A stretch of 20,000 nucleotides of DNA from Psammoneis japonica (taxonomy: Eukaryota). Of this stretch, positions 1 to 17,666 are shown in pieces; the first letter of the stretch is position 1, and each line of letters opens with the position of its first letter. The stretch spans positions 302,122 through 322,121 of the forward strand of contig QPGO01000036.1 in NCBI GenBank assembly GCA_008632985.1. The letters are read 5' to 3'. A program made the translations under genes and the position numbers. The notes beneath the pieces are model-generated. The model had not been told where the DNA came from. It searched no databases and saw only the letters and a program-made list of their open reading frames with translations.

Positions 1-840
1 GACCAGGACAGAGAGTGGATTGCGACAGGAGTGTGCCATTGTCATTGGCAGATGTTGGATTGGAGAACAGGTTGTGAAGGACAGATGTGACAGAAACAGA
101 GCAAAACAAAGGGAGAGAGCTGACAAATGGAAGCAAAAGGGAGCAAATGGAGCTGTTCTCAATGAGGTGAACATGTGAACAAAACAAGCCACACAGGTGA
201 CTTCAAACGAGCAAAAAATCTTTCAATTGTTCATGAGTTAAAAGCTGTGAAGGGACAAAATCATCATCCATGTAAATTGAACAGATGTGGAAACAATCAG
301 CACAAACATGAAAATTTTGACAATTGATGAGTGCCACTCTGTCCAAGCATGGAAACATGTCACAGATGGTTGCAGCCCAGTGCACTTGCAATGTGGCATG
401 TCTTTTGTTGGGCACTGAGTCATGTGTGCAGTTGACAGGACTCAAGCCCTTCAACCTGCAACAAGGGCAGAGCTTGAAAGTGTGCACAGAGGACAGGTGA
501 AACACTTGACAGGCTGAGGCAGGACAGCCATGTCACATGCTTGGGAGGTTTGCAGATGAACCACAGAGTCCAGAGGGCATGTGTGCAGAGTGTGGGTGCT
601 TGGGAGTCATTCTTGTTGGGAGCATGTGCAAAAGTGACACCCCTGTGTTCTCTTCAGGACATCAGAGAAAACCCAAGTTTGATTGCCTGCATGCACTGCA
701 ACTGGTTGCTGGCTCTGCTTCAACTGTTGTGCACTCACCAAGCGCCATGGATCATGAAACACCACAGGGCCCCAAAGAGAAAAATGGAAAGCACGCTGTT
801 CACTCATCACGTGTGTGGAGAAGGAACTGCATCACAAATT
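1..840. other. TpA/CpG-depleted hypermutated island 1 (relic sequence, open at the window start)
   Basis: Hand count for 1-720: 2 CG and 2 TA, with none of either in 301-720. The minus-strand ORF 203..505 is Cys/His-rich with a single Tyr. Composition returns to normal over ~850-950. Confidence 0.85.
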
Positions 841-1067
841 CACAAATGGCAAACGGGAAGCAAATTAAGACTGTAGCGACTGTGCTCCGCTCAAGAATCA
901 AGAGTGGAGTGACTTTCTGCGAATGCTTGGGTTAGCAACTGCCAGTGGATTCAACAATCGCTGCAGTCGGTGCGACGAAGAACTAGCGCTTGGATTCATT
1001 GCGGGCTAGATGACAGGCTGTTCTAATCCTTAGATAGATTTTACTAACTTCTCTACAATCAGCTTGA

Positions 1068-2281
1068 TTATTTGTTCATGACTGCTTTGACAAAGGCATC
1101 GATTTCTTTCTCTAATTGCGCCTTTTCGTGCAGTCCGTTGATCAGTTGCGGCGGCAGTTTGTCTTGCCCGGCCCTGCCCCCAAGATAGCGCCAAGAATAG
1201 AGCCTCGGTGAACATTCTCACCACCAACATTAGCATTGGCAACTATGCCCGTCCAAACATCTCCAAACGGTAAGTACTTGCATATCATGTCTAGGGTGGG
1301 GGCCAAGCTACTTGACAAGTAGCACGCTGTCATTTGGTCTTGCCTCCTTGACGACGGCATGGTCCGAAGGCCAAACTTTATCGCTGTTTCTCGTAGAGAC
1401 GTTGACATGTCATCCCCTTTCTCACTGGGCTCATGCACGGAATCATAAACGAAGGCACCCCAAGAATGCCCAATACGTTCCAGTTGCTTCGATCGTCTAG
1501 TGACAGATGCTGTCTCAGCAGCGACCGCTGCTGCCTTGTCCTTGTTACCGCCACTCGCACTTGCGGCTAGCGCAGCAATCGTAGGGAGAACGAGGCCGTC
1601 AATGGTATCTACATTATGCTGGTCGTTGTCGGGGCACTGCTCTGGTGGCAACTTTTTGAAGACTAGGTTGGCGAAAAACATTCGATGGCAGGTCGATGCG
1701 TATGTGTCGTTGTGGCTGCCTGGTGTCATCATGAAATCCAGGTATGCCTTACGAAAATGGTTCGAATCAAAGACACCATTATTGGCAACGATACTTTTCA
1801 TCAGCACCCTTCCCAACTGGGCCTCCAAAGTGTTCTCTCCTCTGGCGAGTGTGGCGTGGTAATGAATTGATTTTTTCGGGTCCCACAATTCGCGCTTTCC
1901 GTGATTAATGACATCGCCGATAATGGAAATGCCGCCATTTTTCTTCGAAAACGAGCCACGTCCGCCGCCGTTGACGTTGCTTTTATTAAGAATGGAGCCC
2001 GCAAGATTCAGTTTGGGCCTTGTGTAGTCTACGATGCCTTCCGCACCATAATCTGCCCGTATTTGACGTGGTCCCCCGTAGTACCAGTGAGTCGGCGCCG
2101 CCAATGCATCACCCGCAAAGAAACCCCACAGCGCTCCCCTTATCCTCGATTCCACAAGTGCCGCAGTATTACCACCTGCACAGGTGGCGCTCGAAGACAT
2201 TATTGAATGGGAAGACGATGGACAGAGAAGTAGGAACAACGCAATTGAAAGCGCCTGAGATGATTTACCCAGCGGCTTCAT
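1068..2281 (-). CDS. ADP-ribosylglycohydrolase (DraG/ARH family) protein with an apparent 1-nt deletion near 1172-1181
   Basis: Family-like motifs RIRGALWGFFAGDALA, NTLEAQL and ANANVGGENVHRGSILGAILGA. The ORF ends at 1142, but a shifted frame continues AGQDKLPPQLINGLHEKAQLEKEIDAFVKAVMNK to TAA at 1068-1070. The span is 1214 nt, one short of a multiple of 3. Hydrophobic N-terminus (ALSIALFLLLCPSSSHS). Confidence 0.85.
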
Positions 2282-2830
2282 GCAACTTCAATCATCCAGA
2301 ATTTGAATGGCAATTTGTAGTAATTTTTCCCACTCTGATCGCCACGATCAGCGTCACTCCGACGCCATTGCCCTGGCGCCAGATCGAGGGATTGACTGAC
2401 TCATCGGAGTGGCTCAATCGCAGTGCGGACAGCAGTGATACCGGTAACCATCCACGACCACGACATGCTCCGTCAGCCGTCAGGCCTCGCACGACTCGCG
2501 GAAACTTCCCGCGCAACCCCAGTCGTATACGTGACTAACAATTCTTCGCGCGACTTCGTAGAAATGTACACAGAGCTCAGTAACAAGCTTTTTCAGTGAT
2601 GGAGGGTTGTGGTCGCGTTTCTGCAGCGAGAACGCGAAGCGATGAAACTGCGGTGAATCAACGAATTCAACGCTTTGTACTGCTCCATCAGTTCCCAAAA
2701 ACAATCAAGAAGTGACTGGTGACTGGAGAGCAACAAGACGTACTACTACAATATCAAGTCGTCCCACTCTTTGCATAGAAGCACCAAGTGTGACACGGGC
2801 AGCTTGTCAATCGACACCTCACAATACACT

Positions 2831-3745
2831 ATGACGACTACGGTTGTTGCCCAACCCCTCTATGGTGAACACAGCTTTCTTTCTCGACTCCTTTTCAGTG
2901 CGACCGACGCAAGTCCTGTCATGATTTCTAGCGATTCTTCATTTGATGCAATGTTGGTACACGATGCACCTTGTATTCCATCCATGGATGACCTTCGACC
3001 TTCACGCACAAGGGTCAAAGACGAAAAGATGCCGTCCCCGGATGAGAAAGCTGAAGCAAATACCGAACACCGTAAATCCGCTTGCAGTGGCGTACTCCAC
3101 AAAGACGCTGGGTTTGCACTAGTTGAAGCAGCTAATATACAGTTCAACTGCAACAACAGGGAAAGAGCATTTGCATTGTGGGACGAAGCGCTGCAACTGC
3201 AAAGAAAGCTACTAGGTCTGCGCCATTTAGCTGTTAGCCGCACCCTCGTAAAGAGAGGCATTGCTTATTGTAAAATTGGCTCATACTACGAAGCAATATT
3301 GGATTTGGAAAGTGCATTCCACATTCAACAACGAGAATCGCAAAAAATGGTAAACGAAAACAATCGAGTCGACGGCGAAGACCCGCTACTTTTATTGGAA
3401 ATGGCAGACACCCTTTTAAACCTCGGTAAAGCTCAACAGAGATACGGTTCCCTGGAAGAGGCCATACATAGTCTTTCGCAGTGTTCTGCTCTGACGAAGC
3501 AATACTACGGAGAAGTACACCCGAGAGTAGCAAAAGTGGAGTGCCTTATTGGAAAGTTTCACCAGCAGCAAAGGCATTTTACAAAGGCTCTGTCATCGTA
3601 CCGAAGAGGATTAGAGTTGTACAAGCAATGCGGGGTCCAAAAGCGCCATCCAGACGTAAGATGGGTGCACAAATGTCTGTCAGATCGAAGCATGGGAGCC
3701 GACCGATTGTTTTGGTCTCGGAATTGCTTAGATAATACCATATGA
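2831..3745 (+). CDS. Tetratricopeptide-repeat (TPR, kinesin-light-chain-like) protein
   Basis: First ATG at 2831. Helical repeats such as AFALWDEALQLQRKLLGLRHLAVSRTLVKRGIAY, MADTLLNLGKAQQRYGSLEEAIHSL and YGEVHPRVAKVECLIGKFHQQQRHFTKALSSYRRGL. Confidence 0.8.
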   Translation: MTTTVVAQPLYGEHSFLSRLLFSATDASPVMISSDSSFDAMLVHDAPCIPSMDDLRPSRTRVKDEKMPSPDEKAEANTEHRKSACSGVLHKDAGFALVEAANIQFNCNNRERAFALWDEALQLQRKLLGLRHLAVSRTLVKRGIAYCKIGSYYEAILDLESAFHIQQRESQKMVNENNRVDGEDPLLLLEMADTLLNLGKAQQRYGSLEEAIHSLSQCSALTKQYYGEVHPRVAKVECLIGKFHQQQRHFTKALSSYRRGLELYKQCGVQKRHPDVRWVHKCLSDRSMGADRLFWSRNCLDNTI

Positions 3746-3875
3746 CTCTGTGTGCTACGCGCTACAGTGACACGACGATAGAGAGCGACAGTTACATGCT
3801 AACTTTACAACAATAGAGCACTGCTTTACGAGAATAGCGAACTCCCCACATGTCTACTCGGTCGCGGAGAAATGC

Positions 3876-4040
3876 AACGAAATAATAGGTGTGACTTGTT
3901 GCTTGAGCTTAGAATTGAGATTAATGGATTTTAATTTGTGCTCGAACGCTCTCAACAACGACTAATAGGTGTGACTTGTTGCTTGAGTTAGAATTGAGCT
4001 TAATGGGTTAAGGTGTGTTCAAACGCTCTCAACAACGACT
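3876..4040 (+). repeat. Tandem direct repeat, two diverged ~80-bp copies
   Basis: taataggtgtgacttgttgcttgag...aacgctctcaacaacgac begins at 3883 and again at 3963. Confidence 0.9.
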
Positions 4041-4547
4041 TTAGATCTCGCGTCGGAGATGCGAGGAAGCAAGAATCCCCTCCTGCGTGAAAGCATCATT
4101 CGTCGCCACGATTACGTTGCACCGATTGATGAGTGGTGCACGCGTACACTATTCCCCGGTAAAATTGAGGATGCATACGCACTCTTTGGTAGTTTTCTCC
4201 CCACCTAGTGTACGAACAATTCTTGTTGATACACGATGCTTGTGAAGACTTGGCAGAATCGTTTGAAGCCTCGGATCGAGCAATCATCAGTAGTAGTGAG
4301 GACCTGGATGAGTACGTGGACGAGCCGAACTGACGTGACAGCACTGCAACATACCGGTAGGCAAAGATGAATGCTGATGTGGAGGAGCGTAGCATTCTTA
4401 GCATATCTTTTGACGAAAAGTGAGTGGGTTTATGCATCAGAAGATGAAGATGATTCCGATTCCACGGAACTGATCGGGCTCGGGGCTGCAGCATGTGCGG
4501 GCTTTCCTATTTGATGAACGAACGCAGACCCGACAATGTCGTCGCGT

Positions 4548-5714
4548 TCATTGCATTTCTTTCAGAAATTCAAGAGCCGTTTCGAAGGACATCTTGTCTC
4601 TGGGTATGTCGGAACGGGTTTCCAAAAAAGCATTCCAGTCCTCCATAAAGTGCTCAAAAGTCAAATGTTCGCGTTCAGCATCTGTAAACAACACGTTGTA
4701 GCACCTCATCATATCCAACAGCCCCTGCTTGCTAGAGCAAGCATAACCCTCGTCTTCTTGCATCCAGTCGATCTTCAAACGTGCTTCTCGTATCGGAGTC
4801 AACATGGGATTTGATGACTGAAACCAGTGATTGTTGCAGCTTTGGATGTGCTGATGCACTAGATCCCGGTCCAAAGCACTTGCGGCAGTTTGCTTTTCAC
4901 AAATCAAAACACTCACATGTTTTCTATAGTTTGAACTCGGGTCGAAAGTACCAGAGGACCATACGGAAGGCATGGTAGCTGGAGCGTCTATATGATCCTG
5001 ACTATCATTTGAAGGTGACGAAGCTTCCAGTGCTGGGGCGAGATTTTGATGAACACCTGTTGCTTTTTCGTTTTCACTTTCGGGGTCCAAGTCACCGCCA
5101 GACGAAACTGAAGCTTCCACTATTCTTGGCATGGCGTAATACCCGACTGTCCATGTAGCCCCTGGGCAGTCTTTGAGTATTCGAGAAATGAAGTTGTAAT
5201 CATGAAACGATACTACAACATAGATACCACCCACCTTCAGACTGTCATGGGCCAAGCACAACAGCCCGGCCGCGGCATCATCGTTGGAACACATGACAAA
5301 ATCTAAGGTCGATTTGTCCACCGCCAAATCAAAGTACTCGCTTGGTATCTGCTCTACTACTATGCTTTCGCTGAAATCCATCCTCACAAACTCCATCTTG
5401 CGGCTCGCTTCTTTATCTCCGTTGAGTCTTCTTCCCCATCGATTCTCTATTCTGTCAAGGGCGTCAGCATCTCGATCCACATTGACAACATGACTGAAAC
5501 CCAATTCCTGAATTAAAACTTCTCCCAAGACTGAGTCGCCGCATCCAAGGTGCAGTGCCGATCTCTCCATATCACACGCATTCTCCGGCCGAGACAACCC
5601 ACAGATTCTCGGCTTCAGCAGGGCTCCTAAACTTTCTGCGCTTGTAAGCCATTCAAAAGGGCATTCGGTATCTTTTGACGTCCGGCTTGTATTTGTGGCT
5701 GATTTCCTAGCCAT
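4548..5714 (-). CDS. Class I SAM-dependent methyltransferase, EEF1AKMT4/METTL13-like
   Basis: 388-aa ORF with FEWL, motif I LHLGCGDSVLG, post-I VNVD, motif II FDLAVDKSTLDFVMC, and LKVGGIYVVVSFH. Confidence 0.8.
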   Translation of the reverse strand: MARKSATNTSRTSKDTECPFEWLTSAESLGALLKPRICGLSRPENACDMERSALHLGCGDSVLGEVLIQELGFSHVVNVDRDADALDRIENRWGRRLNGDKEASRKMEFVRMDFSESIVVEQIPSEYFDLAVDKSTLDFVMCSNDDAAAGLLCLAHDSLKVGGIYVVVSFHDYNFISRILKDCPGATWTVGYYAMPRIVEASVSSGGDLDPESENEKATGVHQNLAPALEASSPSNDSQDHIDAPATMPSVWSSGTFDPSSNYRKHVSVLICEKQTAASALDRDLVHQHIQSCNNHWFQSSNPMLTPIREARLKIDWMQEDEGYACSSKQGLLDMMRCYNVLFTDAEREHLTFEHFMEDWNAFLETRSDIPRDKMSFETALEFLKEMQ

Positions 5715-6033
5715 GATACTTATCCATGGGGGACTGAGGAAACATCATCAAAAGTACGGAGAAGTTCGTGAAAGCATCATGGCGAACGAACCCAGAACGC
5801 TGAACGCTCGCCGTTATCATATTTGGTTTGAGTTGCCGCCGACACGTGGCGCGTGCGCATGGCTTTCGCTCGTACGTCGCTCGTCGCCCATTTTTCATGG
5901 TATTTTGTCTGTCCACCCACCCGGCAGAACAGCATATTACAGTACAAGTATGCCCGATGCACGATGACGAAGGCACTAACTGCCGACGCTCAATAAGCGC
6001 TATCTTCGACTTTCTTTCCAAAGCGACACGACA
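5715..6033. promoter_or_regulatory. Probable bidirectional promoter containing a G-box
   Basis: 319-bp gap between divergent ATGs (5714 on minus, 6034 on plus). GACACGTGGC at 5841-5850. Function is inferred only. Confidence 0.4.
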
Positions 6034-6792
6034 ATGGCCACAGTCTCATCTACGAGTCCAGACTTACCAGTCATTATAATTGGCGTTGCAGGCGGCTCGG
6101 GTTCAGGAAAAACGACCTTGACGAAGCGAATCCAACAAGAGCTAGGCGATGAAAATGTGGCGTACTTGCTCCATGACAGTTATTACAAAGGTGGGCGCAA
6201 AGAAGCGACGAAACAAGCTATAGAATTTCACAAATAGCTCTTATGCACTGCCTTACCCTTGTTCTGTGTCGTATCTTTACTTGTAGACATCACACACCTG
6301 CCGATTGAGGAAAGAGCAAAAACAAACTTCGATCATCCTGATTCACTAGATACGGAATTGTTGGTTACGCATATTTGCGCCTTGAAGCGAGGACTATCTG
6401 TAGACGTCCCACAATACGACTTTACAACGCACAGTCGAACCCCAGTTACCACACCGATTGCCCCCAAGAAGATAATTTTGGTCGAGGGCATACTTATATT
6501 TTCAAACCCAGATCTGGTCAAAAATATAGATTTGAAAGTCTTTGTTAATACCCAGGCCGACGTTCGATTCATGCGTCGGCTAAAGAGAGACATGGAGTCA
6601 CGTGGTCGAACATTTGATGAAGTCGTAAGACAGTATAATGAAACTGTTCGACCCATGCACGACCAATATGTTGAACCGTCGAAACACAACGCGGATGTGA
6701 CTGTGAACAACTCCGATGGGAACTACGCAAGCATGAAGATGACTGTGAGAATGATTACGAATCACTTGCGTGTCGAAGCAGGCTTACTCTAG
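6034..6792 (+). CDS. udk: Uridine/cytidine kinase; exons 6034-6190 and 6287-6792
   Basis: P-loop [14 protein letters not shown], then HDSYYK^DITH across a GT...TAG intron (6191-6286, phase 1), [31 protein letters not shown] and [13 protein letters not shown]. Confidence 0.93.
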
Positions 6793-6919
6793 AGGCTGTT
6801 GAAAAGCCTAAGGTATTCCACTGGGACTACCTGAACCTGTACAGCAATGTTGGATTTACTTTTTGTTCGTCCATGCGATGACAGTCACTTAGTTTTGCAC
6901 AGATTACTAATTCAGCCCT

Positions 6920-7972
6920 TTAAAAGCATTCAAAGATGTCATCTGGAGGTTGAATATCAGAACTTGAAGGGTCGGGGAACCAGCAGAAATCAATTTTTCG
7001 CAAGGCCTGTAGTCTTTCGTCGTTAATTCCGGAAACGGTAATGTTGTGGGTGGTGCCGTGATGATGAACTGAATGTACATATTCACGACACGTATGCCTC
7101 TGATGCCGCACCCAGGATCCTAGCTCGGGGTTCGCATCGTATTGCTGGGGGACGTTACAATGCCCATACTTCTTGTTGAATACAACCAATTCTCCAAACA
7201 TCCTCCACCATTTGTCACGTTTAGGTGCCCAAGAAAATCCCACAACATTCAACAGCTCTATTTGCTCACTCGTTAAAGGCTTGTGAGGTGCTTTTGATGT
7301 CGGACTGTTCGATTCCCTATATCTGCGCCGTTGTTCAGACACCCATCTCCCTAACGCAGGGTTCTTACTGTACGTCGACGGAACTAGCGCATGGCCGTGT
7401 TGTTCTCGGAACTCTACAAGTTGGTGAAAGCGGATTTGCCAGTTGGCACGATGCATGTTCCATTCAAAACCCAACGATCTCAATTTCTCAATCCGTTCTT
7501 GGGTCAAGTAGGGCAATCCACGTGAGTACTGTGCACGCTGATTTCTAACCCAATCGGCGAGCTCCTTGTACTCTGTACAACCAAAGGTCGGCTGAGGCAC
7601 ATGGCAGTGTCCATGCTTTTCCTTGTACGCGCGTAACTCTTCAAACCTCTCATTCCACCGTTGTGTAGCATAATTGGTCACGTCTTGCCGTTTTTTTTCT
7701 TCTTTTGGAATGACGCTCGTCCACGGCGTTGTGTCTGCTCTCGAACGACTAGAAGCAAACCCAACACTAGTGTCGTTTGAAACAGAAAAGGGTGGTATTG
7801 AATAGGATACCATTTGCAAACGAGAGTCTGTGTCTCTTCTATGGCGCTTGAAATTCCGACGACCCATGGCAATGGACGCATCCAAAGGCCTGCCTCCTCT
7901 AGACAACATCCAAGCGGTGCATGTTGTCAAAACGAGCGAGGTCACAGTGACTACAACCGGAAAGTTTACCAT
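6920..7972 (-). CDS. Helicase-associated (HA, PF03457-type) domain protein with three HA repeats
   Basis: Three repeats of W..RF.EL..F...HGH..VP...L..WV..QR...L..L.F.W, e.g. WNERFEELRAYKEKHGHCHVPQ...LTQERIEKLRSLGFEW. Hydrophobic N-terminus. Confidence 0.88.
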   Translation of the reverse strand: MVNFPVVVTVTSLVLTTCTAWMLSRGGRPLDASIAMGRRNFKRHRRDTDSRLQMVSYSIPPFSVSNDTSVGFASSRSRADTTPWTSVIPKEEKKRQDVTNYATQRWNERFEELRAYKEKHGHCHVPQPTFGCTEYKELADWVRNQRAQYSRGLPYLTQERIEKLRSLGFEWNMHRANWQIRFHQLVEFREQHGHALVPSTYSKNPALGRWVSEQRRRYRESNSPTSKAPHKPLTSEQIELLNVVGFSWAPKRDKWWRMFGELVVFNKKYGHCNVPQQYDANPELGSWVRHQRHTCREYVHSVHHHGTTHNITVSGINDERLQALRKIDFCWFPDPSSSDIQPPDDIFECF

Positions 7973-8519
7973 GGCTTGAGTCGATTTTCACACCTCTCGA
8001 ACGTGTAATCTTTTCGCCGTATCAAATACCATTTTCACTAGCTAGGACAAGAACATCAAGAAATGCAGTGGCATTCGTTTGCTCTGACTCACTGTCCCTC
8101 CATCATCGCATCCGCACAGTGATCCCCGATGTAGAACAAGAATTGGGTCATGCGTGACGTCGATCCGCCACCACAAAAAGACGTCACTGTTTTTTACCGG
8201 TATTTGGCGGGAAGAATAAAAACGGGGTGACGTGTTGATGTTGAGGTCGCGGATGCCGATACCGTAGATGTCAAAGACGATGGATACAGTGCCGTGTCTA
8301 TTGTGTATGATACGAACGACGAGCTGGAGGAGCTGGGCAGCTTTAACTCAAGGAGTTTGCTCCGACGTCGCCGCTGCATGACACCAATAAACGAGGTGCT
8401 TTTGGAATTGCGGGGCGCGACTTGGTTGGCATTGGCAACTTTGTTTGCGCTGTTTTAGGTGTGCTTGTGATTACGAGGAGATTGTCTGAATCTTGGATTG
8501 TAGTGTTTCTCTGCCGAAG

Positions 8520-9780
8520 ATGGGTTTTCTCCCACATCGACAGACGCTGTTCTTTTGGTTGATCTTGGTGCATGCTGCTACCGCTTTTGGAGATATCCCA
8601 TCAATAGCTCGTTTGCCACGAAAAGTTTTGGTTACTGGAGCAGGTAGGGGGGAAGGCATAGGCGCGAATGGCGGCGAAATGTCAGTGTTTCTTACACTCG
8701 AGAAACTTTTTTCATTCTTTTTTTAGCCGGGCGCACGGGTATGCTGGTTTTTAATTCGCTCACGGAAGACCCTCGCTATACACCAGTGGCCATGGTCAGA
8801 ACAGAATCAAGCGCAAAAAAGTTTATGAGAGTTTCCAAATGCGGATTAGATCAAGTAATGGTGGGCGACGTTACAAAAATGGAGATAGACCAGGAAGAGA
8901 CATTGCCGAGTGGATTGGATGGCACTTTCGCCATGATTATTTGTACTTCCAGTATGCCTTTCTTGAGCAAAAGATCTCTACTCAAAGCATTCTGCAAGGT
9001 ACCCTTCAATGTGTTGAGAAGAAAAAAAGCGCTGGACTTTCGAACATTACGTTTTAAATTCAGGAAGGGACAGTATCCCGAGAAGGTTGACTACGAAGGC
9101 CAAAAAGTACAAATCGATCTCGCGAAGAAGCTTGATATGAAGCATGTCGTACTCGTCAGGTAGAGAAGATATGCATTGTTGTGAATCACTCGCACAGCTC
9201 AATTGAAATGTAACTTGCTTGTTTCCTTTCCTTTTCGCTTGTGTCAATCAAACATTCCCTGTGCCACAGCTCAATGGGTGGTACAGATCCCAACAATTTT
9301 CTTAACTCGGTTGGAAAGAAAGCAGATGGCACTGGCAATGGGGACATCTTGCTGTGGAAACGAAAGGCGGAAAGGTATCTTGTAGAGGTACGTAAGATCC
9401 GTTTTCTGCAGTTGTGCCTTGTCATTCTCTCCTAATGTTCTGCCACTTGCGCTTTGTCTTTCTATCATGTTGCCCATCTTTAATATAAAAAGAGTGGACT
9501 TCATTATACAATAATTCACCCAGCTGGATTGGTCGATACACCACCCGGGAAGGAAGAGTATGTTTTAGACGTGAATGACAAGCTATTTGAAAGCTCCAAA
9601 CGAAGTATTGGGCGTGCCGACGTTGCCAACTTGTGTGTGGCATCTTTGGCCTTCGATCAAGATCTATCCTTTGACTGCATAACAAGAGTTCCGCTAGATT
9701 CCAAGCCATTACCAGATTCAGCAGAGAAGGCGATTGCTAGCTTCCTCAGAAGTGGCAAGACAACAGACTATTCCCGATGA
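8520..9780 (+). CDS. NAD(P)-binding Rossmann-fold protein (atypical SDR, NAD_binding_10 / At5g02240-like), probably plastid-directed; exons 8520-8643, 8727-9159, 9270-9387, 9493-9780
   Basis: Splicing at GT-AG sites yields VLVTGA^AGRTG (GxxGxxG), YPEKVDYEGQKVQIDLAK, VVLVS^SMGGTDPNNFLN, ILLWKRKAERYLVE^SGLHYTIIHPAGL and SIGRADVA. The signal peptide ends at AATA-F. Confidence 0.88.
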
Positions 9781-9980
9781 ATCCTCACTTACTCCAGTAG
9801 TCATTGAAGCCGTATCGGAATTCATCCATAATGTCACTATGCAATAGAGTTGACCTTAAGCCTAACCTGCCCAAGCCCATTGATAGGATTAGAGAAAGGC
9901 GACTGGCTTCCGGAATATCGGTAAAGATTTCATGCTCGTGGCTGGTTAACGACAAGCCCATAGCCCAATCTCTTTGTCTG

Positions 9981-10117
9981 ACTTCGAGCCAAAGTAAGCT
10001 AAATGGTTAGTGTAAATCGTTAAGTGTCATTTCCACTTCGACACAAAGAAAGCTAAATGGTTAGTGTAAATCGTTAAGTGTCATTTCCACTTCCATACAA
10101 AGACAGCTAAATGCTTA
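9981..10117 (+). repeat. 54-bp tandem repeat, ~2.5 copies
   Basis: aagctaaatggttagtgtaaatcgttaagtgtcatttccacttc at 9996 and 10050, with a partial copy cagctaaatg at 10104 and acttcg at both 9981 and 10035. Confidence 0.9.
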
Positions 10118-10330
10118 ACGGTAGTGGTCAGATTTCAAAATCTGAGCAATACAGAAATGTCAATGATGAATAAGGATTTTAGATTGCTTCTGCCGTAAAT
10201 ATCATTACGCCAATGCCACTAATGAATACACAAATGAATTTGTATTCCATCCTTTTCCTGAACTTTGATCTATCGGCATTTTCGATACGAGTGCTCGACG
10301 CGATGACAATGAGGCATGCTTGTATGTGTC

Positions 10331-10720
10331 ATGGCCATAAGCTGTGAGGCGTACCGTCACATTTGGATTGAACTCGGGGATCTTGATGTCGAAAGTAGCC
10401 ATTTGTTTGACATTCGTGATTTTTCATCGCCCACAAACTGGGATTTCAACTGAGTCGAGTTGATGTTGGACGTGTTTCAAAGCACTGCGTTTGATGAAAC
10501 AATTGAGGGCTCTGGAATTATGGCATTTTATGCCATGGAGACTTAAAACAGCAAATGGGTTGACAATCAAGCAGTGATCGGGTTTGCCAACATTTCCAAA
10601 AATGTGACAACAAAAGTTGCATCACTCAACAACCAACAACATCTCAAGAGATGGAAACAAGAAAAGTGACTCCTCTTTGCACTTGAATTAAAAGAGACAA
10701 CAATGCACAACAAACATTTG
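10331..10720 (+). pseudogene. Degenerate reading frame of unknown identity crossing into island 2
   Basis: One frame reads MAISCEAYRHIWIELGNLDVESSHLFDIRDFSSPTNWDFN*VELMLDVFQSTAFDETIEGSGIMAFYAMET*NSKWVDNQAVIGFANISKNVTTKVASLNNQQHLKRWKQEK*LLFALELK, with stops at 10451 (TGA), 10544 (TAA) and 10667 (TGA). Confidence 0.4.
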
Positions 10721-12480
10721 AGAAGGACAAGAAGCTCTTGAATGCATGGAACCAGAAGAGAGTCAATGAATCGCTCTTGTTTTGAACCTCTTGACCTGTT
10801 CTGTCCATGATGGTGGTTGGCTGAAAGGTTGGTGGTGGTTTTTTTGTGTGACTTGCAGCTTGAGGCATGTTGATGCATGAACACATGGCCCATGTGTGGT
10901 GTCACCTTTGGAAAGTGCCACTTGTGGAGCTTGGGTGGACAACTCTCTGTGCTCAAGCTTTGTCTGCCAAATGCTCCATCAAAGTCCAGATGCTGCCACA
11001 TCCCACCCGACCATTGACACAAAACAGTTCTTGCAAAATGTTGTTGCCTGTTTCCCTCTTCCTCTGCAGAGCAGCCCTCTTGGTGACAGTGCTGCCCACA
11101 TGCCAGAATGTGCTCAAGAATGCTTTCCATTTTGCCAGCAAAGATGCCCAACGCGGGGCTGTGTGGGCTCGAATCTCTCTCAAGACAAGCTGACATTTGT
11201 GCCTGGCACTGGCGGCAATGCTCAGCCCTCCTTCCTGTTTGACTTCCCAGGAGTGTGCCCAGATCTCCTGCGTGCTGAGTGGCTCAACCACAAGAGTCGC
11301 TGTCTTTGTCAGTTTTGTCAGCAGGATGTGCCAAGGCTGCTCTGGCCATGTGTGCGCAAGGACAGCTGCGACAGCGCTTTCTGCTGTCAGCAAAGAGTGT
11401 GAGCTGGCTGGACTGCCCAACCCCACACTTCACAGCTCCTTGGCAGTCACTCCAAATCAAGTGCCAACTTGGGGTCAACCGCACCTGGCTGGTTGCAATG
11501 CAAAGACAGCTGTGGCAGCACTTTGTGACAACAAAGAGAGTGCGAGCTGGCTGGGCTCCCAACCCCACACTTCACAGCCCCTCAGCACTGGCTCCCAATC
11601 AAATGCCAACTTGGGGCCAATGGCTGTGAAGCCATCATTGCAAATCCCTGTGCCTGCCCCCTCACACAGCTTTGCACAGGGTCAACATGTGTGGCCTTTG
11701 CAAGATGGGCCCTGGCTGGCTGCTGGCTCTTCAGCCACACGGCTTGCACAACAAGCCACCACAACACAGAGCACTGTGGGGTGAGTGCAGCACAGCCCAA
11801 ACAAGCACACCATGCTGAGATCACCCAGAGTTGGCTGCTGTCCTGGGGCTCCATTCAAAGCTGGGCTGGGCTGCTTGGCTCCTTGGTGTGCAGCACATGC
11901 TTGGCATCACATTCTTGTTGCCAAGCAGCCACATGGCATGTGCCCACCATTTGTGCCTGCAACAGCGACCCCAGCCACAAAGAAGCCAACAAAAAGTTGA
12001 ACCTGGTTTTGTGGTTGAAGAGTGAAGAAACTGTGAGTGAAGTTTGGTTCAAGATTTGTTGGCAATGCCAAGTGCGCAACCAAAGAGAGGCGCCAAAAAT
12101 GGCTGTTCTCGCTCATTTCTCAAGAGGAGCTTGCGCTCATGATGCAGGGTCTGAAGCAAGCACCAGCCAAGACAACAGTTTTTTCTCTCTGCCCCACTTA
12201 AAACACAGCCTTTGAGTCAATGTGGTGCTCCTTCAACAACTCACGCACACTGGGAAGAGCAGCTAGAGCCAGGGCAGCTGGCCTGGCAGGGCTTGGCTGA
12301 CACCCAAGCTGGGCTGCTCAGCCTGGTGGCACACACTCAGTGCCACATTGTCACCCTCCTGCAACTGCAATGTGCCCCACTCTTTGCACCTGCAGCAACC
12401 ACCCTGGATCAAAAGAAGCCAGTGCAACTCTGGCCATGGTTGCATGGTCAATTGTGTGTGTGTGTTCAACGGTTGATTCC
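10560..12480. other. TpA/CpG-depleted hypermutated island 2 with relic plus-strand coding sequence
   Basis: Hand count for 10561-12480: 3 TA and ~22 CG. No TA at all between 10691 and 12198. ORFs are Tyr-free and Cys/His-rich. Confidence 0.88.
11361..11620 (+). repeat. Diverged direct repeat with ~144-bp period inside island 2
   Basis: gacagctg...caaagag...gagctggctgg...cccaaccccacacttcacagc...tgccaacttgggg begins at 11361 and at 11505. Confidence 0.85.
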
Positions 12481-12762
12481 CCTCTTTTTTTTCTCTTTTC
12501 CTTTAACCGGCCACGGACATGAAAAAATTGCCGGAATATCGAGAAATATGCGTTTGTCTGTTCAATGACTTGAGTGCGAGTGACGTCCCGCCTTGTTTTT
12601 TCCGCTTTGCTACCGTGCGTCTGCGTTTTCACTGTGAAGCACGCAGCACGCAATGAGCACTGATTGTCTTCACTTGCGTCTCGCTCAGTCTCTCCCGCTG
12701 TTGTGTGCTGTTTGCCTTACTTGTGCATAAACTTATCAGTGTACGAGCTCCTCTGCGGGAGA

Positions 12763-13885
12763 ATGGAACGATCAGTACAAGCAGATGAGGTTGTGATATC
12801 GATAGAAAGCAATGGTGACGTTGATAGTAGGAAACTGCAGCAAAACGACCCTGAAGAGCAAGGCATTGCATTCACGTCACGAATCGAACACCGGATTACT
12901 GCTGAAGAAATTGGATTGTCTTTTCGTACGCTTCAACCGACTGATAGGCAAGTCATACAAGAACTCCATGAGGAATGGTTCCCTGTTTCTTACGAAGACG
13001 AGTTTTACGATGAGTTGGTCAAGAACCGTATGTTTAATTCTGGAGCGCCTCTGTTTTCATGCGTCGCTATTCACCACCCAAAGCCGCAACTAACGTCACG
13101 GCTTACAACGAGTGATGGAGTCATATTTCACTTTGAGAACTACAATCCCAAGGACATTCTTTGTCGAGAGATAAATCCTGTGTCAAGCACAACGAGCAAT
13201 TCATCGACTGTGGATTCCAGTGACAAGATTGTAGCATGCGTCGTGGGGTCATTTCTTGATGCCTCTCGTGTCTGCAAGCACACGCGGGATGTGTTGCTTG
13301 ATAGGGGAAGAGCTACAGACAACACCAGCAAGTTGTTTTACATTATGACCTTGGGCACTGTAGCAGAATTTCGGCATTTAGGTTTGGCCACCATGCTGGT
13401 TGAGAAATGCATCGACTTGGTGGAAAAAGATCCTTCGTGTGGAGCCCTCTATCTTCATGTCATTACCTTCAATCATGCAGCCATTCGATTTTATGAAAAG
13501 ATCGGATTCTACCGTGTAGAAGAAGTGGAAGGTACGTTTGTGCGTCGAGAACGATGCTCTTGCGCAAACGAACATGTAATGAATGGCTTCTAACGTTCTT
13601 CTGAGTAACGCATTGCATGCGTAGACTATTATACAATCAATGAAAAGCGCTACAATTGCTATCTATATGCAAAGTACTTCCATGGTGAGTTCGCGCAAAC
13701 GAGCAGTGTTTTGAAGCTGCACTAGAGTAGAGATTATGCTCGTTCCTTAGACTGCGATTCTCCTATTTTCCGCAGGAAATCGAGGACAGCGTGGCATTTT
13801 CAATTTCGTGTCGACAATAGTTTCTACTGTTTGGGATGGTGTCTTGGCACCAGTCTCATTGCTACAAGAGCTTGTGGTTGGTTGA
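12763..13885 (+). CDS. NAA60: N-alpha-acetyltransferase 60 (NatF, GNAT family); exons 12763-13531, 13625-13684, 13776-13885
   Basis: LHEEWFPVSYEDEFYDEL, YIMTLGTVAEFRHLGLATMLV and LYLHVITFNHAAIRFYEKIGF. The spliced continuation is ^DYYTINEKRYNCYLYAKYFH^GNRGQRGIFNFVSTIVSTVWDGVLAPVSLLQELVVG*, an amphipathic tail as in NAA60. Both introns are GT-AG, phase 1. Confidence 0.85.
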
Positions 13886-14939
13886 TGGCAGAATGCTGCA
13901 ACAAGAATGCCTTCCCAATGTAACGAGGACGAGTTCTGCGTAAAAAGTATCACGGATGTTAACATCTTGATTCAACCCGGCGAGAACAATGTGTTAATTT
14001 AATTCCCAAAATACGCTTGCGGTGAAGACCTTGTGCTGTTCCACTCCGACATTTTTCGGAGAAGACCATTAAAAAAGAATGTGGGTGTGAGGCCACTGAC
14101 AAGACAGAGATTCCTGCGGTGGGTTGATACCATTGTGGGCTGCTCAGGCGTTGATGGGACGGACACCCATCTTCTTCCTAAGACTTCCTAAGACCTGCTT
14201 TTTCGTTTCAAAGTGAGTGGTCGTCACGTCTGTACGGAGGGCGAAGCGAAAATTTCTTTTCGTGCGGATGTTTGACACTCCCGATGACTCTAGTGTCGAC
14301 TCCAAAGACTACGACAATCAGAGAAAGTCTATCGGGTGATAGCCGCGGTGATGGTGATTCACCACGAGATGCGAGGCATTTGTGGCAACGAGTATCTGGA
14401 TGTTCGTGTGGTTACGATGGACAGCAGGCGGCAGGGAACACTTATGGTGTGGATGTTGCAAACGAGCTTGAGCTTTTGGATTTCGGAAACGATGGGTAGA
14501 AACGGGCAATCGAGTTCAGATTCCTTGAGTATCTTTTTCCAAAGATGGCTTAAGTCCCGAGTAGAATCGCCATAATTCGGAAGGAAATGGCGTGGCGGGT
14601 TGTTTGAGTCGAACCTCTCTTTTCACAACGCGATCTAAATACATTAACATTGTGGCACTACATTAGGGGGTACAGCTGCGCTCGGCTGTTCGAGTTGCTC
14701 TATAAGATTGCTTCTACTTTACATGGGGAATTGTTGATGTACTGCTGTAACATGTCAGGTCGGCTATGCCATTGTGCCAAGTCTCTTTGCATTTTCAACC
14801 CAGATTGCAGTACATTCTTTGCTCAAAACTTCCGCGCAACTTTGGCTCCAGATTCCAAACGTTTGGACAGATTTTTCAGATGACAGTGGGCCGAGTCTCA
14901 TCACCCTGCACGCTTCTCACCAAATTTCTCTTACCAGCC

Positions 14940-16595
14940 TTTCTTGCCACAAACTTTCAACTCATGGATGATGTCACATGGTGTCCTGAAAAGTGGGGTC
15001 TTGTGATGCTCTCACAGTTGGGCACCTTGATGCATTGTTGGATGTGATGTTTTTTCCAACTTCCCCACTCTGTGCAATGAAGGTGATTTGTGTGCAGCAA
15101 GTCCACAGGTGCAGTGTGCTGCACACTGCACACTGTGCAACAACAATGCTGACAGTGGACAGTGGCTGGATGTGAGGAACTGCTGGACAGCTTTGCATTG
15201 ACATGTGATGCATGTGCTTTGTGAAAGTTCATCAACTGGTGGCATTGACCATTGATTGGCATTTTTCTGCCTGGTGTGGGCAGCAGGTTTTGACTGGTTT
15301 GACTTGAGCAAAGCAGAGTCAGCCCACAAAAACAATTTGGTGTCAAAGTGGGGAGAGCTGACAGCTGCACAAGCACCCATCTCCAACAAAGGCAGCTGCA
15401 CTCAAGGACAAGGAACAGCATGTGAAGCAAAGTGCAAAATGTGGACAAGGAGCTTGTGCAGAAACAGAATGTCCAGCCACTGCAAGAGGCTGAGCAAGAA
15501 GCAAGAAGCCAGAGGGGGGCAAGAGCCCACACAGAGAGAAGAGTGGTGTGCACTGTGCCTTAAAGAGCTGGGTAGAAGGGGCAAACAAAATGCCAAAAAG
15601 AGAAATTGTGAGACTGTTTTGGGCACCAAAAGCAAGCAGGGTCAGGGTTGGGGTTAGGGTGTGACCCAGCAAGAGAGCTCATTGCCACCCCCATCAGCTG
15701 GCTGGCCAAGAACCCTGCACAGGTTGTCCATGACCAAGCAGTGCCCCACAAAGTGTTGCTTTTCAATGCCACTTTGAGGTGTGCTCCAGTTGCAGCTAAG
15801 AGCTGCCTCACAAAAAACTGTTTTGACACTTGTCACAATCTCCCAGCATGCAAATGTGTGATTGGAGCCTGCAAAGGGCATCTCTCTGCAACCATGTGCT
15901 GCTTCTGTCAAATGAGAGCAAGCACACTTGCTCCATGTGAGTGGACCTCTCTGCAGAGCTGGACAGTCATCTTTGCAGCTTTGGTGCAGAGCTCCCAACC
16001 CAATGCTTCACAGAAACACCAAGAACAACAAGAGCAGAGACAATGGAAAGCACCTGTGTGCATTGGAGCAGCAAGCAGCTTGAGCAACAACAAAAAGAAA
16101 AAGGGAAAGAGGAACAAAAAGAAGAGCAAAATCCAGGCGTTTTGTGTTTGCAAAAAGCTTGGGAAGGTGCAGCATCTGAGGTGGCCAGAAATGATCTCTG
16201 AAGGTGCGGTTTTGTGATGATGACATGTGAGCAAAGTCAAGAAGCCACACAAAGACAAGCAAGTCAACTTGGCACAGCATTGGCCAGAGTGGCAGCTCAA
16301 GAATGCACACAATCACCTGCAGGGCACCACCAAGCAGCATGGCCACCCTGGCCAGCTCCCACAGCTCTCTGTCACAGAGCTCTGCCTCTTGCAGCCTCAA
16401 TTCAGGACACTTTGTGGCAAAGTTGAAAAAAAATGTGATTTGATCAACACGTGCCTGATGTGGAGGCAGGAAGAAAGTGGGCAGAACTGGCTTGTGAAAA
16501 AGTGCAAACTTCTGAGAGAGGTGAGCTGGAGTCACGTTCACCCCCAGCAACTGCTGACGACATCAAAGAGCCTTGCTCTGCTGCAGCGTGTGCGC
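14940..16595. other. TpA/CpG-depleted hypermutated island 3 with relic plus-strand coding sequence, ending at the assembly gap
   Basis: Hand count for 14941-16440: 4 TA and 2 CG, with none of either in 14941-15540. Long Tyr-free ORFs at 15256..15657, 15648..16217 and 16227..16595. Confidence 0.9.
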
Positions 16596-17131
16596 NNNNN
16601 NNNNNNNNNNNNNNNNNNNNNNNNNNNNNNNNNNNNNNNNNNNNNNNNNNNNNNNNNNNNNNNNNNNNNNNNNNNNNNNNNNNNNNNNNNNNNNNNNNNN
16701 NNNNNNNNNNNNNNNNNNNNNNNNNNNNNNNNNNNNNNNNNNNNNNNNNNNNNNNNNNNNNNNNNNNNNNNNNNNNNNNNNNNNNNNNNNNNNNNNNNNN
16801 NNNNNNNNNNNNNNNNNNNNNNNNNNNNNNNNNNNNNNNNNNNNNNNNNNNNNNNNNNNNNNNNNNNNNNNNNNNNNNNNNNNNNNNNNNNNNNNNNNNN
16901 NNNNNNNNNNNNNNNNNNNNNNNNNNNNNNNNNNNNNNNNNNNNNNNNNNNNNNNNNNNNNNNNNNNNNNNNNNNNNNNNNNNNNNNNNNNNNNNNNNNN
17001 NNNNNNNNNNNNNNNNNNNNNNNNNNNNNNNNNNNNNNNNNNNNNNNNNNNNNNNNNNNNNNNNNNNNNNNNNNNNNNNNNNNNNNNNNNNNNNNNNNNN
17101 NNNNNNNNNNNNNNNNNNNNNNNNNNNNNNN
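16596..17131. other. Assembly gap (536 N)
   Basis: Run of N. Confidence 1.
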
Positions 17132-17132
17132 T

Positions 17133-17666
17133 TTGCGTTTAGCCGCATTCTTTGGAAATGCTGAGGTCTGCCGGTTTCTTCTGCAGAATCACGCTGACGT
17201 AGAGGCGAGGACAACATACGGTTTGGGTTACACAGCTCTTCACCTTGCTTCAGGTCAAGGAATGGAAGACACTGTGAGATTTCTCTTGGATGAAGGAGGA
17301 GCTTCAGTCAATGCGACAAGCCATCATGATGGAAACACGCCATTGCATTGCGTTGCAATCCACTCGGGCAGCGAAAGCGTTGTCAGACTGCTGTTGCGCC
17401 ACGGAGCTAATCTGAACGCCGCCGAGAGTGGGGTCACACCCATGGACTGTTCCATCTATAACGGTCACCACGGCGCCACCTCTGCCTTGATGGATGCGCA
17501 TGTGCGGCAACTTTTGTCGAACGAAAATCTTCCGCCAGCGCTCTGGGCCCATGTGTTGGCGAAAGTGGGGAACAGGAGTACAGACATGTCCAGAGTGGGC
17601 CTTGTTTACTCTTTGAGTCGTGAGAAGCCGGATCTGTTTGAGTTACAGGAATGTGTGGAGGAATAG
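17133..17666 (+). CDS. Ankyrin-repeat protein, 3' part (5' end lost in the gap)
   Basis: LAAFFGNAEVCRFLLQNHADVEA, GYTALHLASGQGMEDTVRFLLDEGGASVNA and GNTPLHCVAIHSGSESVVRLLLRHGANLNA, followed by LPPALWAHVLAKVG...LVYSLSREKPDLF and TAG at 17664-17666. CG/TA content is normal. Confidence 0.85.
   Translation: MRLAAFFGNAEVCRFLLQNHADVEARTTYGLGYTALHLASGQGMEDTVRFLLDEGGASVNATSHHDGNTPLHCVAIHSGSESVVRLLLRHGANLNAAESGVTPMDCSIYNGHHGATSALMDAHVRQLLSNENLPPALWAHVLAKVGNRSTDMSRVGLVYSLSREKPDLFELQECVEE

Follow-up and report, generated by a model that had tools for sequence, protein, structure and literature searches.

TpA-specific hypermutation of invading DNA is described, in the literature searched, in a single preprint of 2026, which deals with one species of chlorarachniophyte, Bigelowiella natans (Mettrop et al., bioRxiv 10.64898/2026.01.13.699255). 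According to this preprint, 231 of the 302 nuclear point mutations in mutation-accumulation lines were located in two integrated viral regions, and 230 of these 231 consisted of A>G or T>C changes, all of them at TpA. The B. natans genome contains 124 clusters of windows that are poor in TpA and rich in CpA+TpG, as well as 324 coding sequences (CDS) with a mean TpA frequency of 0.0018, among which domains of DDE endonucleases and reverse transcriptases are enriched. An adenine deaminase of the ADAT2 type has been proposed for the hypermutation, and neither CpG nor diatoms are mentioned in the main text (bioRxiv 10.64898/2026.01.13.699255). Here, we analyzed a stretch of 20,000 nucleotides (the window) of the diatom Psammoneis japonica (contig QPGO01000036.1, positions 302,122 to 322,121), in which three islands are nearly devoid of TA and CG dinucleotides. 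The second of these, island 2, lies within an inserted element at 9920-12532 and is probably the dispensable interior of a 2.6-kb non-autonomous diatom transposon with terminal inverted repeats (TIRs) that has been saturated by transitions at TpA and CpG.

Several other known systems bear on this locus. The natural substrate of ADAT2/3 is A34 of tRNA, which always follows U33 and is therefore found in a UpA context. Methylated CpG decays to TpG/CpA by deamination of 5-methylcytosine. Repeat-induced point mutation (RIP), which occurs in ascomycete fungi, turns CpA/TpG into TpA, and here too transitions in a dinucleotide context mark repeats. Among non-autonomous TIR elements, those of the hAT type, for example, are flanked by 8-bp target duplications. 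In the diatom Phaeodactylum, young transposons are under the control of DNA methylation involving DNMT5a (PMC9998398).

Dinucleotide composition of the three islands

Island 2 (10545-12469, 1,925 nt) contains 3 TA and 21 CG, whereas about 83 TA and about 110 CG are expected (P = 3e-32 for TA and 8e-26 for CG at background rates), and it contains 225 TG and 223 CA. The rest of the window, divided into 25 windows of 500 nt, served as background; TA and CG account for 4.3 ± 0.9% and 5.7 ± 1.1% of its dinucleotides, respectively. In the initial annotation, which was made from the DNA letters alone, the feature was placed at 10896-12445. This span has 2 TA and 19 CG (P = 9e-27 and 1e-19 at the background rates of the window), and the TA/CG-poor stretch is wider, extending from 10545 to 12469. 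TG is approximately doubled in island 2, with an observed/expected ratio (o/e) of 2.03, and the o/e of CA is 1.72. Island 1 (1-742; 2 TA and 2 CG) is cut by the window start, and island 3 (14933-16594; 4 TA and 7 CG) runs into a gap of Ns; no strand is assigned to any of the three islands. Among the three, o/e values are 0.03-0.04 for TA, 0.05-0.16 for CpG and 1.7-2.0 for TG and CA. Islands 1 and 3 cannot be aligned to island 2, and a blastn comparison among the three islands returned no alignment between them, solely internal duplications. Since three non-alignable sequences share the TA/CG-free state, this state points to a process at work and not to one odd sequence.

TG and CA together make up 23.3-24.0% of the dinucleotides in the islands (23.3% in island 2) compared to 14.8 ± 1.1% in the background. 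The total of pyrimidine-purine (YR) steps is 24.0-24.6% in the islands (24.5% in island 2) and 24.7 ± 1.0% in the background, and TG and CA counts are balanced within each island (225/223 in island 2, 90/88 and 191/196 in the other two). The unchanged YR total fits transitions, as transitions conserve exactly that quantity. A simulation in which all TA and CG of the background were erased at random predicted 12.6% TG and 12.2% CA, compared to 11.7% observed for each. The replacement of TA by TG or CA, proposed in the initial annotation, is thus supported by the unchanged YR total, the raised TG+CA and the TG/CA level of the simulated erasure. None of the 3-mers in the islands departs from a first-order Markov expectation, and no constraint beyond dinucleotides was seen in this comparison. 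A runs test for strand-coordinated clusters of TG or CA gave z values from -1.3 to +1.4, the same as in the background.

As in the B. natans study, TpA is lost while TpG and CpA are gained reciprocally on both strands, and the DNA that is targeted is foreign or mobile, with island 2 inside a transposon and islands 1 and 3 in DNA that is repeated by depth (see below). The TpA frequency of island 2 (0.0016, 3 TA in 1,924 dinucleotides) is similar to that of the TpA-poor class with transposon domains in B. natans (approximately 0.002). The host differs, as P. japonica is a diatom (stramenopile) and not a chlorarachniophyte. The end state differs as well, being saturated here and coupled to a near-complete loss of CpG. 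The target in the diatom is a non-autonomous TIR element that has many copies, can still move and has spared arms, and the process is recognized here from its footprint alone, while de novo mutations were recorded in B. natans. Taken together, island 2 is likely the footprint, in a diatom, of TpA-directed hypermutation combined with CpG decay.

The decay of CpG in methylated transposons resembles what is found in the islands, in that CpG is depleted (o/e 0.05-0.16), TpG/CpA are in excess and the DNA is repeated. CpG decay alone, however, never removes TpA, and the islands are TpA-free; methylation at the locus is an assumption. RIP is also similar as far as it consists of dinucleotide-context transitions in repeated or mobile DNA, but its direction is opposite, as TpA is absent and CpA/TpG are doubled in the diatom islands, and the repeat arms of the element are spared. 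Fungal RIP as such was rejected as an explanation because it requires an excess of TpA and a deficit of CpA/TpG, the reverse of what is observed.

Besides the shifts described above, AT is scarce (o/e 0.61-0.77) and GC abundant (o/e 1.11-1.39) in the islands, and the tetranucleotide TGCA is present at four times its zero-order expectation. Zones of about 120 nt with several CG and no TA border island 1 (743-865, with CG at 743, 794, 810 and 854) and island 3 (14812-14931, with CG at 14833-14911). As these border zones carry CG and lack TA, the TA-free domain extends beyond the CG-free one.

Anatomy and copies of the inserted element

Contigs from four public sequencing runs (X1-X4), all from one sample and one study, were placed on positions 1-16594 at 80% likeness. 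A contig of 12,489 nt (X2 record 6, depth 58.5) matches 94-9909 and continues with 12531-15191, skipping 9910-12530, and it represents the empty site. The insertion is recent, because the empty allele still exists. Over the 9.8 kb of 94-9909, the window is distinguished from this contig by 6 letters and 14 gaps, and over 12531-15191 the two do not differ at all; indel errors in the assembly or variation between alleles may account for these differences. The summed contig depth, which is not equal to copy number, is 4,024-8,516 over the element compared to 58.5 in the flank, a difference of two orders of magnitude (~100x), suggesting that the element is present at roughly a hundred similar copies. 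Arms and interior of the element are equal in depth. Islands 1 and 3 are repeated DNA as well, with summed depths of 366 and 557-1,064, respectively, compared to the same 58.5.

The whole inserted element (9920-12532, plus strand) is 2,613 bp long, as delimited by the empty-site contig, the summed depth, head-to-tail joints and repeats. An 11-bp direct repeat, CCGGAATATCG, is present at both junctions (9910-9920 at the left one) and encloses the 8-bp target-site duplication (TSD) GGAATATC, which the junction alignment places at 9912-9919 and 12533-12540; the empty-site contig joins 9909 to 12531. Five distinct head-to-tail joints were found among the contigs, with ends at 12532/12533 and 9919-9922 and 5-7 unrelated letters in between. 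Because these joints fix the ends of the element, we take the TSD as 8 bp and the element as 9920-12532, an 11-bp reading of the direct repeat being the less likely alternative. The depths of the five joints (118.9, 30.1, 29.1, 31.9, and 29.1) are close either to twice the single-copy depth of 58.5 or to half of it. The joints look like fixed genomic tandem pairs, and not like rare circles, which suggests either insertion beside an existing copy or formation of dimers.

The left terminal inverted repeat (9920-9949, plus strand, 30 nt) is identical at 23 of 30 positions to the reverse complement of 12503-12532, which is the right inverted repeat (minus strand). The 22-nt core of the inverted repeat occurs exactly twice in the window, where no occurrence is expected. 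The left arm (9920-10544, plus strand) has ordinary dinucleotides, with 33 TA and 24 CG in 625 nt, and harbors a 54-bp tandem repeat of about 2.5-3 copies (9981-10142, plus strand) that was found in a repeat search and that may be a transposase-binding array. TA and CG are also present in the right arm (12470-12532, plus strand; 1 TA and 3 CG), which includes the right inverted repeat. The scrubbed part of the element consists solely of the 1,925 nt between the two arms. Within it, a search for repeat structure found nothing beyond one old internal duplication (11394-11620, plus strand), in which approximately 142 nt are about 81% alike (11394-11478 compared to 11537-11620). The two halves of this duplication differ by CG<->TG, CG<->CA and one TG<->CA change and by many other changes; the duplication is too short and too ancient to weigh in either direction.

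No Pfam domain above cut-off, and hence no transposase, was detected in any open reading frame (ORF) of at least 45 amino acids in 9921-12530. As no recognizable product is encoded, the element is read as a non-autonomous TIR (class II) DNA transposon: inverted repeats, a TSD, an empty site and many copies are present, and an encoded transposase is lacking. It is like the hAT-type elements in having TIRs, an 8-bp TSD, an empty site, many copies and no transposase ORF. It differs from hAT elements proper in the lack of a transposase (no Pfam match to the hAT transposase or dimerization domain) and in its termini (GGTAAAG... and GGCAATT...), which do not match the typical hAT end motif, so that the element is not assigned to a superfamily. 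In metagenome scans, neither the core of the inverted repeat nor a 24-nt segment taken from the 54-bp repeat matched any locus. The element is located about 130 nt upstream of a GNAT acetyltransferase ORF (12664-13593, plus strand), likely in its promoter region, and the empty allele lacks it there.

The composition of the interior is reproduced in the contigs. The border between left arm and interior is spanned by contigs that match it with few differences or none, such as those over 10064-10972 (3 differences) and 10364-10574 (no difference), and contigs of run X1, for instance, repeat TA/CG-free sequence with 3, 4 and 3 differences over 909, 641 and 627 nt, respectively. This bears on the idea that heavily modified CG and TA are systematically misread as TG and CA by the sequencing platform. 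In its favor, no platform is recorded for either the assembly or the runs, and the 14 gaps between the window and the X2 contig hint at different chemistries. Contigs of all four runs, however, reproduce the TA/CG-free sequence with few differences (although from one sample and thus not fully independently), 2 of the 35 island differences discussed below introduce TA or CG, and the arms of the very same element are read normally. We therefore consider such a sequencing artifact extremely unlikely.

The window copy was also compared to the other copies. Differences are itemized for 40 of 255 positions, 35 of which are in the islands, while 215 others are not itemized. Among the 35 island differences listed, six are removals of TA/CG that are private to the window copy, including the TAs at 12264, 15561 and 15573, which read TG in other copies. 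Six of the differences listed form three adjacent TG<->CA doublets (15442/3, 15549/50, and 15582/3), which are the sole adjacent pairs among them, and two of those listed create TA or CG. The doublets are expected if a single ancestral TA or CG was resolved independently in different copies, and they are the one indirect hint here of A>G/T>C mutation at TpA; this is suggestive but not decisive, since paralogs that had diverged were admitted at 80% likeness.

Reading frames in island 2

In the initial annotation, island 2 was interpreted as an erased intronless gene that can be read by restoring tyrosine (Tyr) at cysteine (Cys) and histidine (His) codons. The three plus-strand peptides quoted there are all present, each without Tyr: AAHMPECAQECF...WPCVRK within the frame 10881-11399, SHKEANKK...CQVR within 11529-12212, and TTHAHWEEQLEPGQLAWQGL within 12155-12529 in another frame. 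Tyr-free, Cys/His-rich ORFs thus do exist on the plus strand, but they are not specific for it, as all six frames are alike. Tyr is absent from all six frames of island 2, and each frame contains 5.3-8.0% Cys and 3.9-6.9% His, compared to 1.8-3.9% Cys, 3.1-4.8% His and 2.1-3.1% Tyr in four flanking genes. The mean Cys+His fraction of the six frames (0.114) equals that of 500 dinucleotide-preserving shuffles (0.113 ± 0.003), so composition alone yields the Cys/His excess. Without TA there are no TAY (Tyr), TAA or TAG codons, and doubled TG and CA give additional codons for Cys (TGY), His (CAY), Gln (CAR) and Trp (TGG). TAA and TAG occur two times and once, respectively, on the plus strand of island 2, and the ORFs are long because these stop codons are almost absent. 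The open, Tyr-free frames rich in Cys, His, Gln and Trp are an automatic by-product of dinucleotide composition. Islands of this type generate long spurious Cys/His-rich ORFs in six frames, which is a warning for genome annotation.

The reading of island 2 as a former intronless protein-coding gene, of a virus or another mobile element, in which Tyr became Cys or His and which is recoverable by the reverse change, starts from these long Tyr-free frames. The six longest ORFs of island 2 sum to 1109, somewhat more than in the shuffles (878 ± 107; reached by 2.2% of them), while the longest ORF (238 amino acids) is unexceptional, as shuffles give 202 ± 42 and 18% of them reach this length. We used a score of the purine/pyrimidine (RY) pattern of codons, trained on the genes of the window itself and tested by leaving one gene out. 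As transitions leave purine and pyrimidine classes intact, an erased gene should retain its RY codon pattern. Scores in the true frame ranged from +2.0 to +5.2 per 100 codons for five of six real window genes, the exception being the HA-domain gene, whereas no frame of island 2 was positive over its full length; scores were negative in six of six frames, the best being -0.55 per 100 codons and the best block of 650 nt reaching +1.1. A weak period-3 purine signal is found over the whole of island 2 (purine fraction by phase 0.498/0.537/0.449; chi-square p = 0.0067, uncorrected for three islands); the same phase test on real window genes gives p values from 2e-5 to 0.6.

Homology searches were in line with the RY-codon scores. 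Pfam searches with 73 stop-to-stop ORFs of at least 45 amino acids from the islands and the element gave six sub-threshold matches (E 0.018-0.094; 12.8-15.5 bits, with cut-offs of 25-29), where approximately seven are expected by chance, and a Pfam search with four island ORFs gave a weak match to DUF5134 alone. A phmmer search with the unaltered frame 10881-11399 against 1.84 billion representatives found no match at E <= 0.001, and word-indexed searches with the unaltered frames 11529-12212 (plus strand) and 10570-11283 (minus strand) found none either. Scans of viral contigs with two unaltered island ORFs revealed no relative and no viral locus. Only about one tenth of the bases would have been altered by the transitions, so a known domain should still be recognizable in the unaltered frames.

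The proposal of an erased gene is therefore not upheld: the six frames are alike in a composition that the shuffles reproduce, their RY-codon scores are negative and homologs were not found in searches with the unaltered frames. With neither a frame-specific RY signal nor homologs, the claim that the DNA was coding before TA was replaced is not supported. Changing all Cys and His to Tyr in the frame used in the initial annotation would yield about 13% Tyr, compared to 2.1-3.1% in the flanking genes. Non-autonomous transposons often descend from autonomous ones, and a decayed transposase gene is conceivable; given the tests above, we regard a former gene as quite unlikely. A protein-coding gene, erased or not, was rejected as a candidate since both a frame-specific coding signal and homologs were absent in these tests. 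The initial annotation further suggested an endogenous viral or other mobile element, of which the mobile part holds true (TIRs, TSD, empty site, and depth). An endogenous-virus origin is unsupported, the viral-contig scans being empty.

A functional non-coding RNA gene, or a structural DNA such as a chromatin or centromere element, might also demand such a composition, and the extreme composition is common to three unrelated sequences. Searches of Rfam at the gathering score and tRNA scans, however, found nothing. Island 2 is located inside a mobile element for which an empty allele exists, and it has no repeat structure save the one old duplication, which makes a functional RNA or structural DNA very unlikely.

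Origin of the TA/CG-free interior

We propose that TpA>TpG/CpA transitions (A>G on either strand) would have emptied the interior of the transposon of TpA, and that CpG>TpG/CpA transitions, by which methylated CpG ordinarily decays when diatom transposons are silenced, would have removed CpG. Both context-specific transitions together could drive the interior to near-zero TpA and very low CpG. The arms with the inverted repeats and the tandem repeat would keep their TA and CG if copies that lose these cis-acting sequences are no longer mobilized.

Several points weigh against this proposal. The ancestral TA/CG state is deduced from composition, as an unmutated relative did not turn up. When the islands were compared to the remainder of the window by a seed search in purine/pyrimidine code, three seeds were returned (26-27 nt long, base identity 37-62%); as these are at chance level, there is no unmutated source within the window. 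The arms are as deep as the interior, yet normal in TA and CG, and a mutator triggered by repeats would not spare them, so that our proposal has to assume selection or targeting as the reason for their being spared. The erasure model misses AT (4.0%, 6.8% predicted) and GC (8.4%, 6.0% predicted) as well as TT, TC and AG, which indicates that the ancestor differed from the background or that another bias acts. Of the 19 single transitions listed, five create TA or CG, compared to about 47% expected without purging, a count that assumes the window copy to be the one that changed and that says little on whether purging continues. Enzymes and methylation state are not visible from sequence, and the loss of CpG is assumed to be a separate mechanism, CpG being absent from the main text of the B. 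natans preprint (bioRxiv 10.64898/2026.01.13.699255). Finally, the four runs share sample and study, and possibly the source of the assembly, and are not an independent confirmation.

Alternatively, the TA/CG-free state might have been selected, if it makes the interior invisible or immune to a host defense that reads CpG (through methylation) or TpA (through editing or cleavage directed at it) and thereby helps mobility. The element is high-copy and its insertion polymorphic, so that it has thrived in the TA/CG-free state. TA is no more frequent in the consensus of the family than in the window copy (12264, 15561, and 15573 being TG elsewhere), and the arms demonstrate that TA and CG can persist within the same element. 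The conserved YR total and the equal gains of TG and CA are, however, what mutation alone predicts, making selection unneeded, and an unsilenced interior brings little gain to a non-autonomous element. The present data do not separate selection from mutation pressure, but for these reasons we consider selection unlikely.

Saturation of the interior by mutation has implications beyond this locus. A full-text literature search gave no report of TpA erasure or hypermutation in diatoms or other stramenopiles. If the proposal is correct, a saturated footprint in diatom repeats means that the mechanism predates, or is not confined to, a single lineage. We tentatively suggest, with somewhat less confidence than we place in the origin of island 2 itself, that diatoms run an ongoing, locally targeted DNA-editing defense that resembles the one in the rhizarian B. 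natans, converts TpA to TpG/CpA and, together with the decay of methylated CpG, yields TA/CG-free interiors; with such a defense, the mechanism would be spread widely across the SAR supergroup. In that event the element would be a case in which the target is still mobile and only its dispensable interior is scrubbed, and the surviving TA and CG would mark the sequences that the transposon needs in cis. TA/CG-free islands could further serve as a genome-wide read-out of the DNA that a cell has treated as foreign, and their features (TA and CG close to 0, TG and CA doubled, YR total unchanged) as a signature for finding targets in any genome.

The genes flanking the element are of ordinary kinds; their products are an ADP-ribosylglycohydrolase, a TPR protein, a methyltransferase, an HA-domain protein, a uridine-kinase-like fragment and a GNAT protein. 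For the ADP-ribosylglycohydrolase, every best relative that is named comes from a diatom, with identities not exceeding 67%, from which it follows that the window is diatom DNA. A 77-bp tandem repeat (3875-4040; 2.1 copies, 87% matches) is located in DNA of normal composition, between the TPR gene and the ORF that follows. Island 3 is terminated by a run of Ns (16596-17131, 536 nt), and right after this run an open frame in DNA of normal composition (17133-17399) encodes ankyrin repeats (Ank, E = 9.5e-23).

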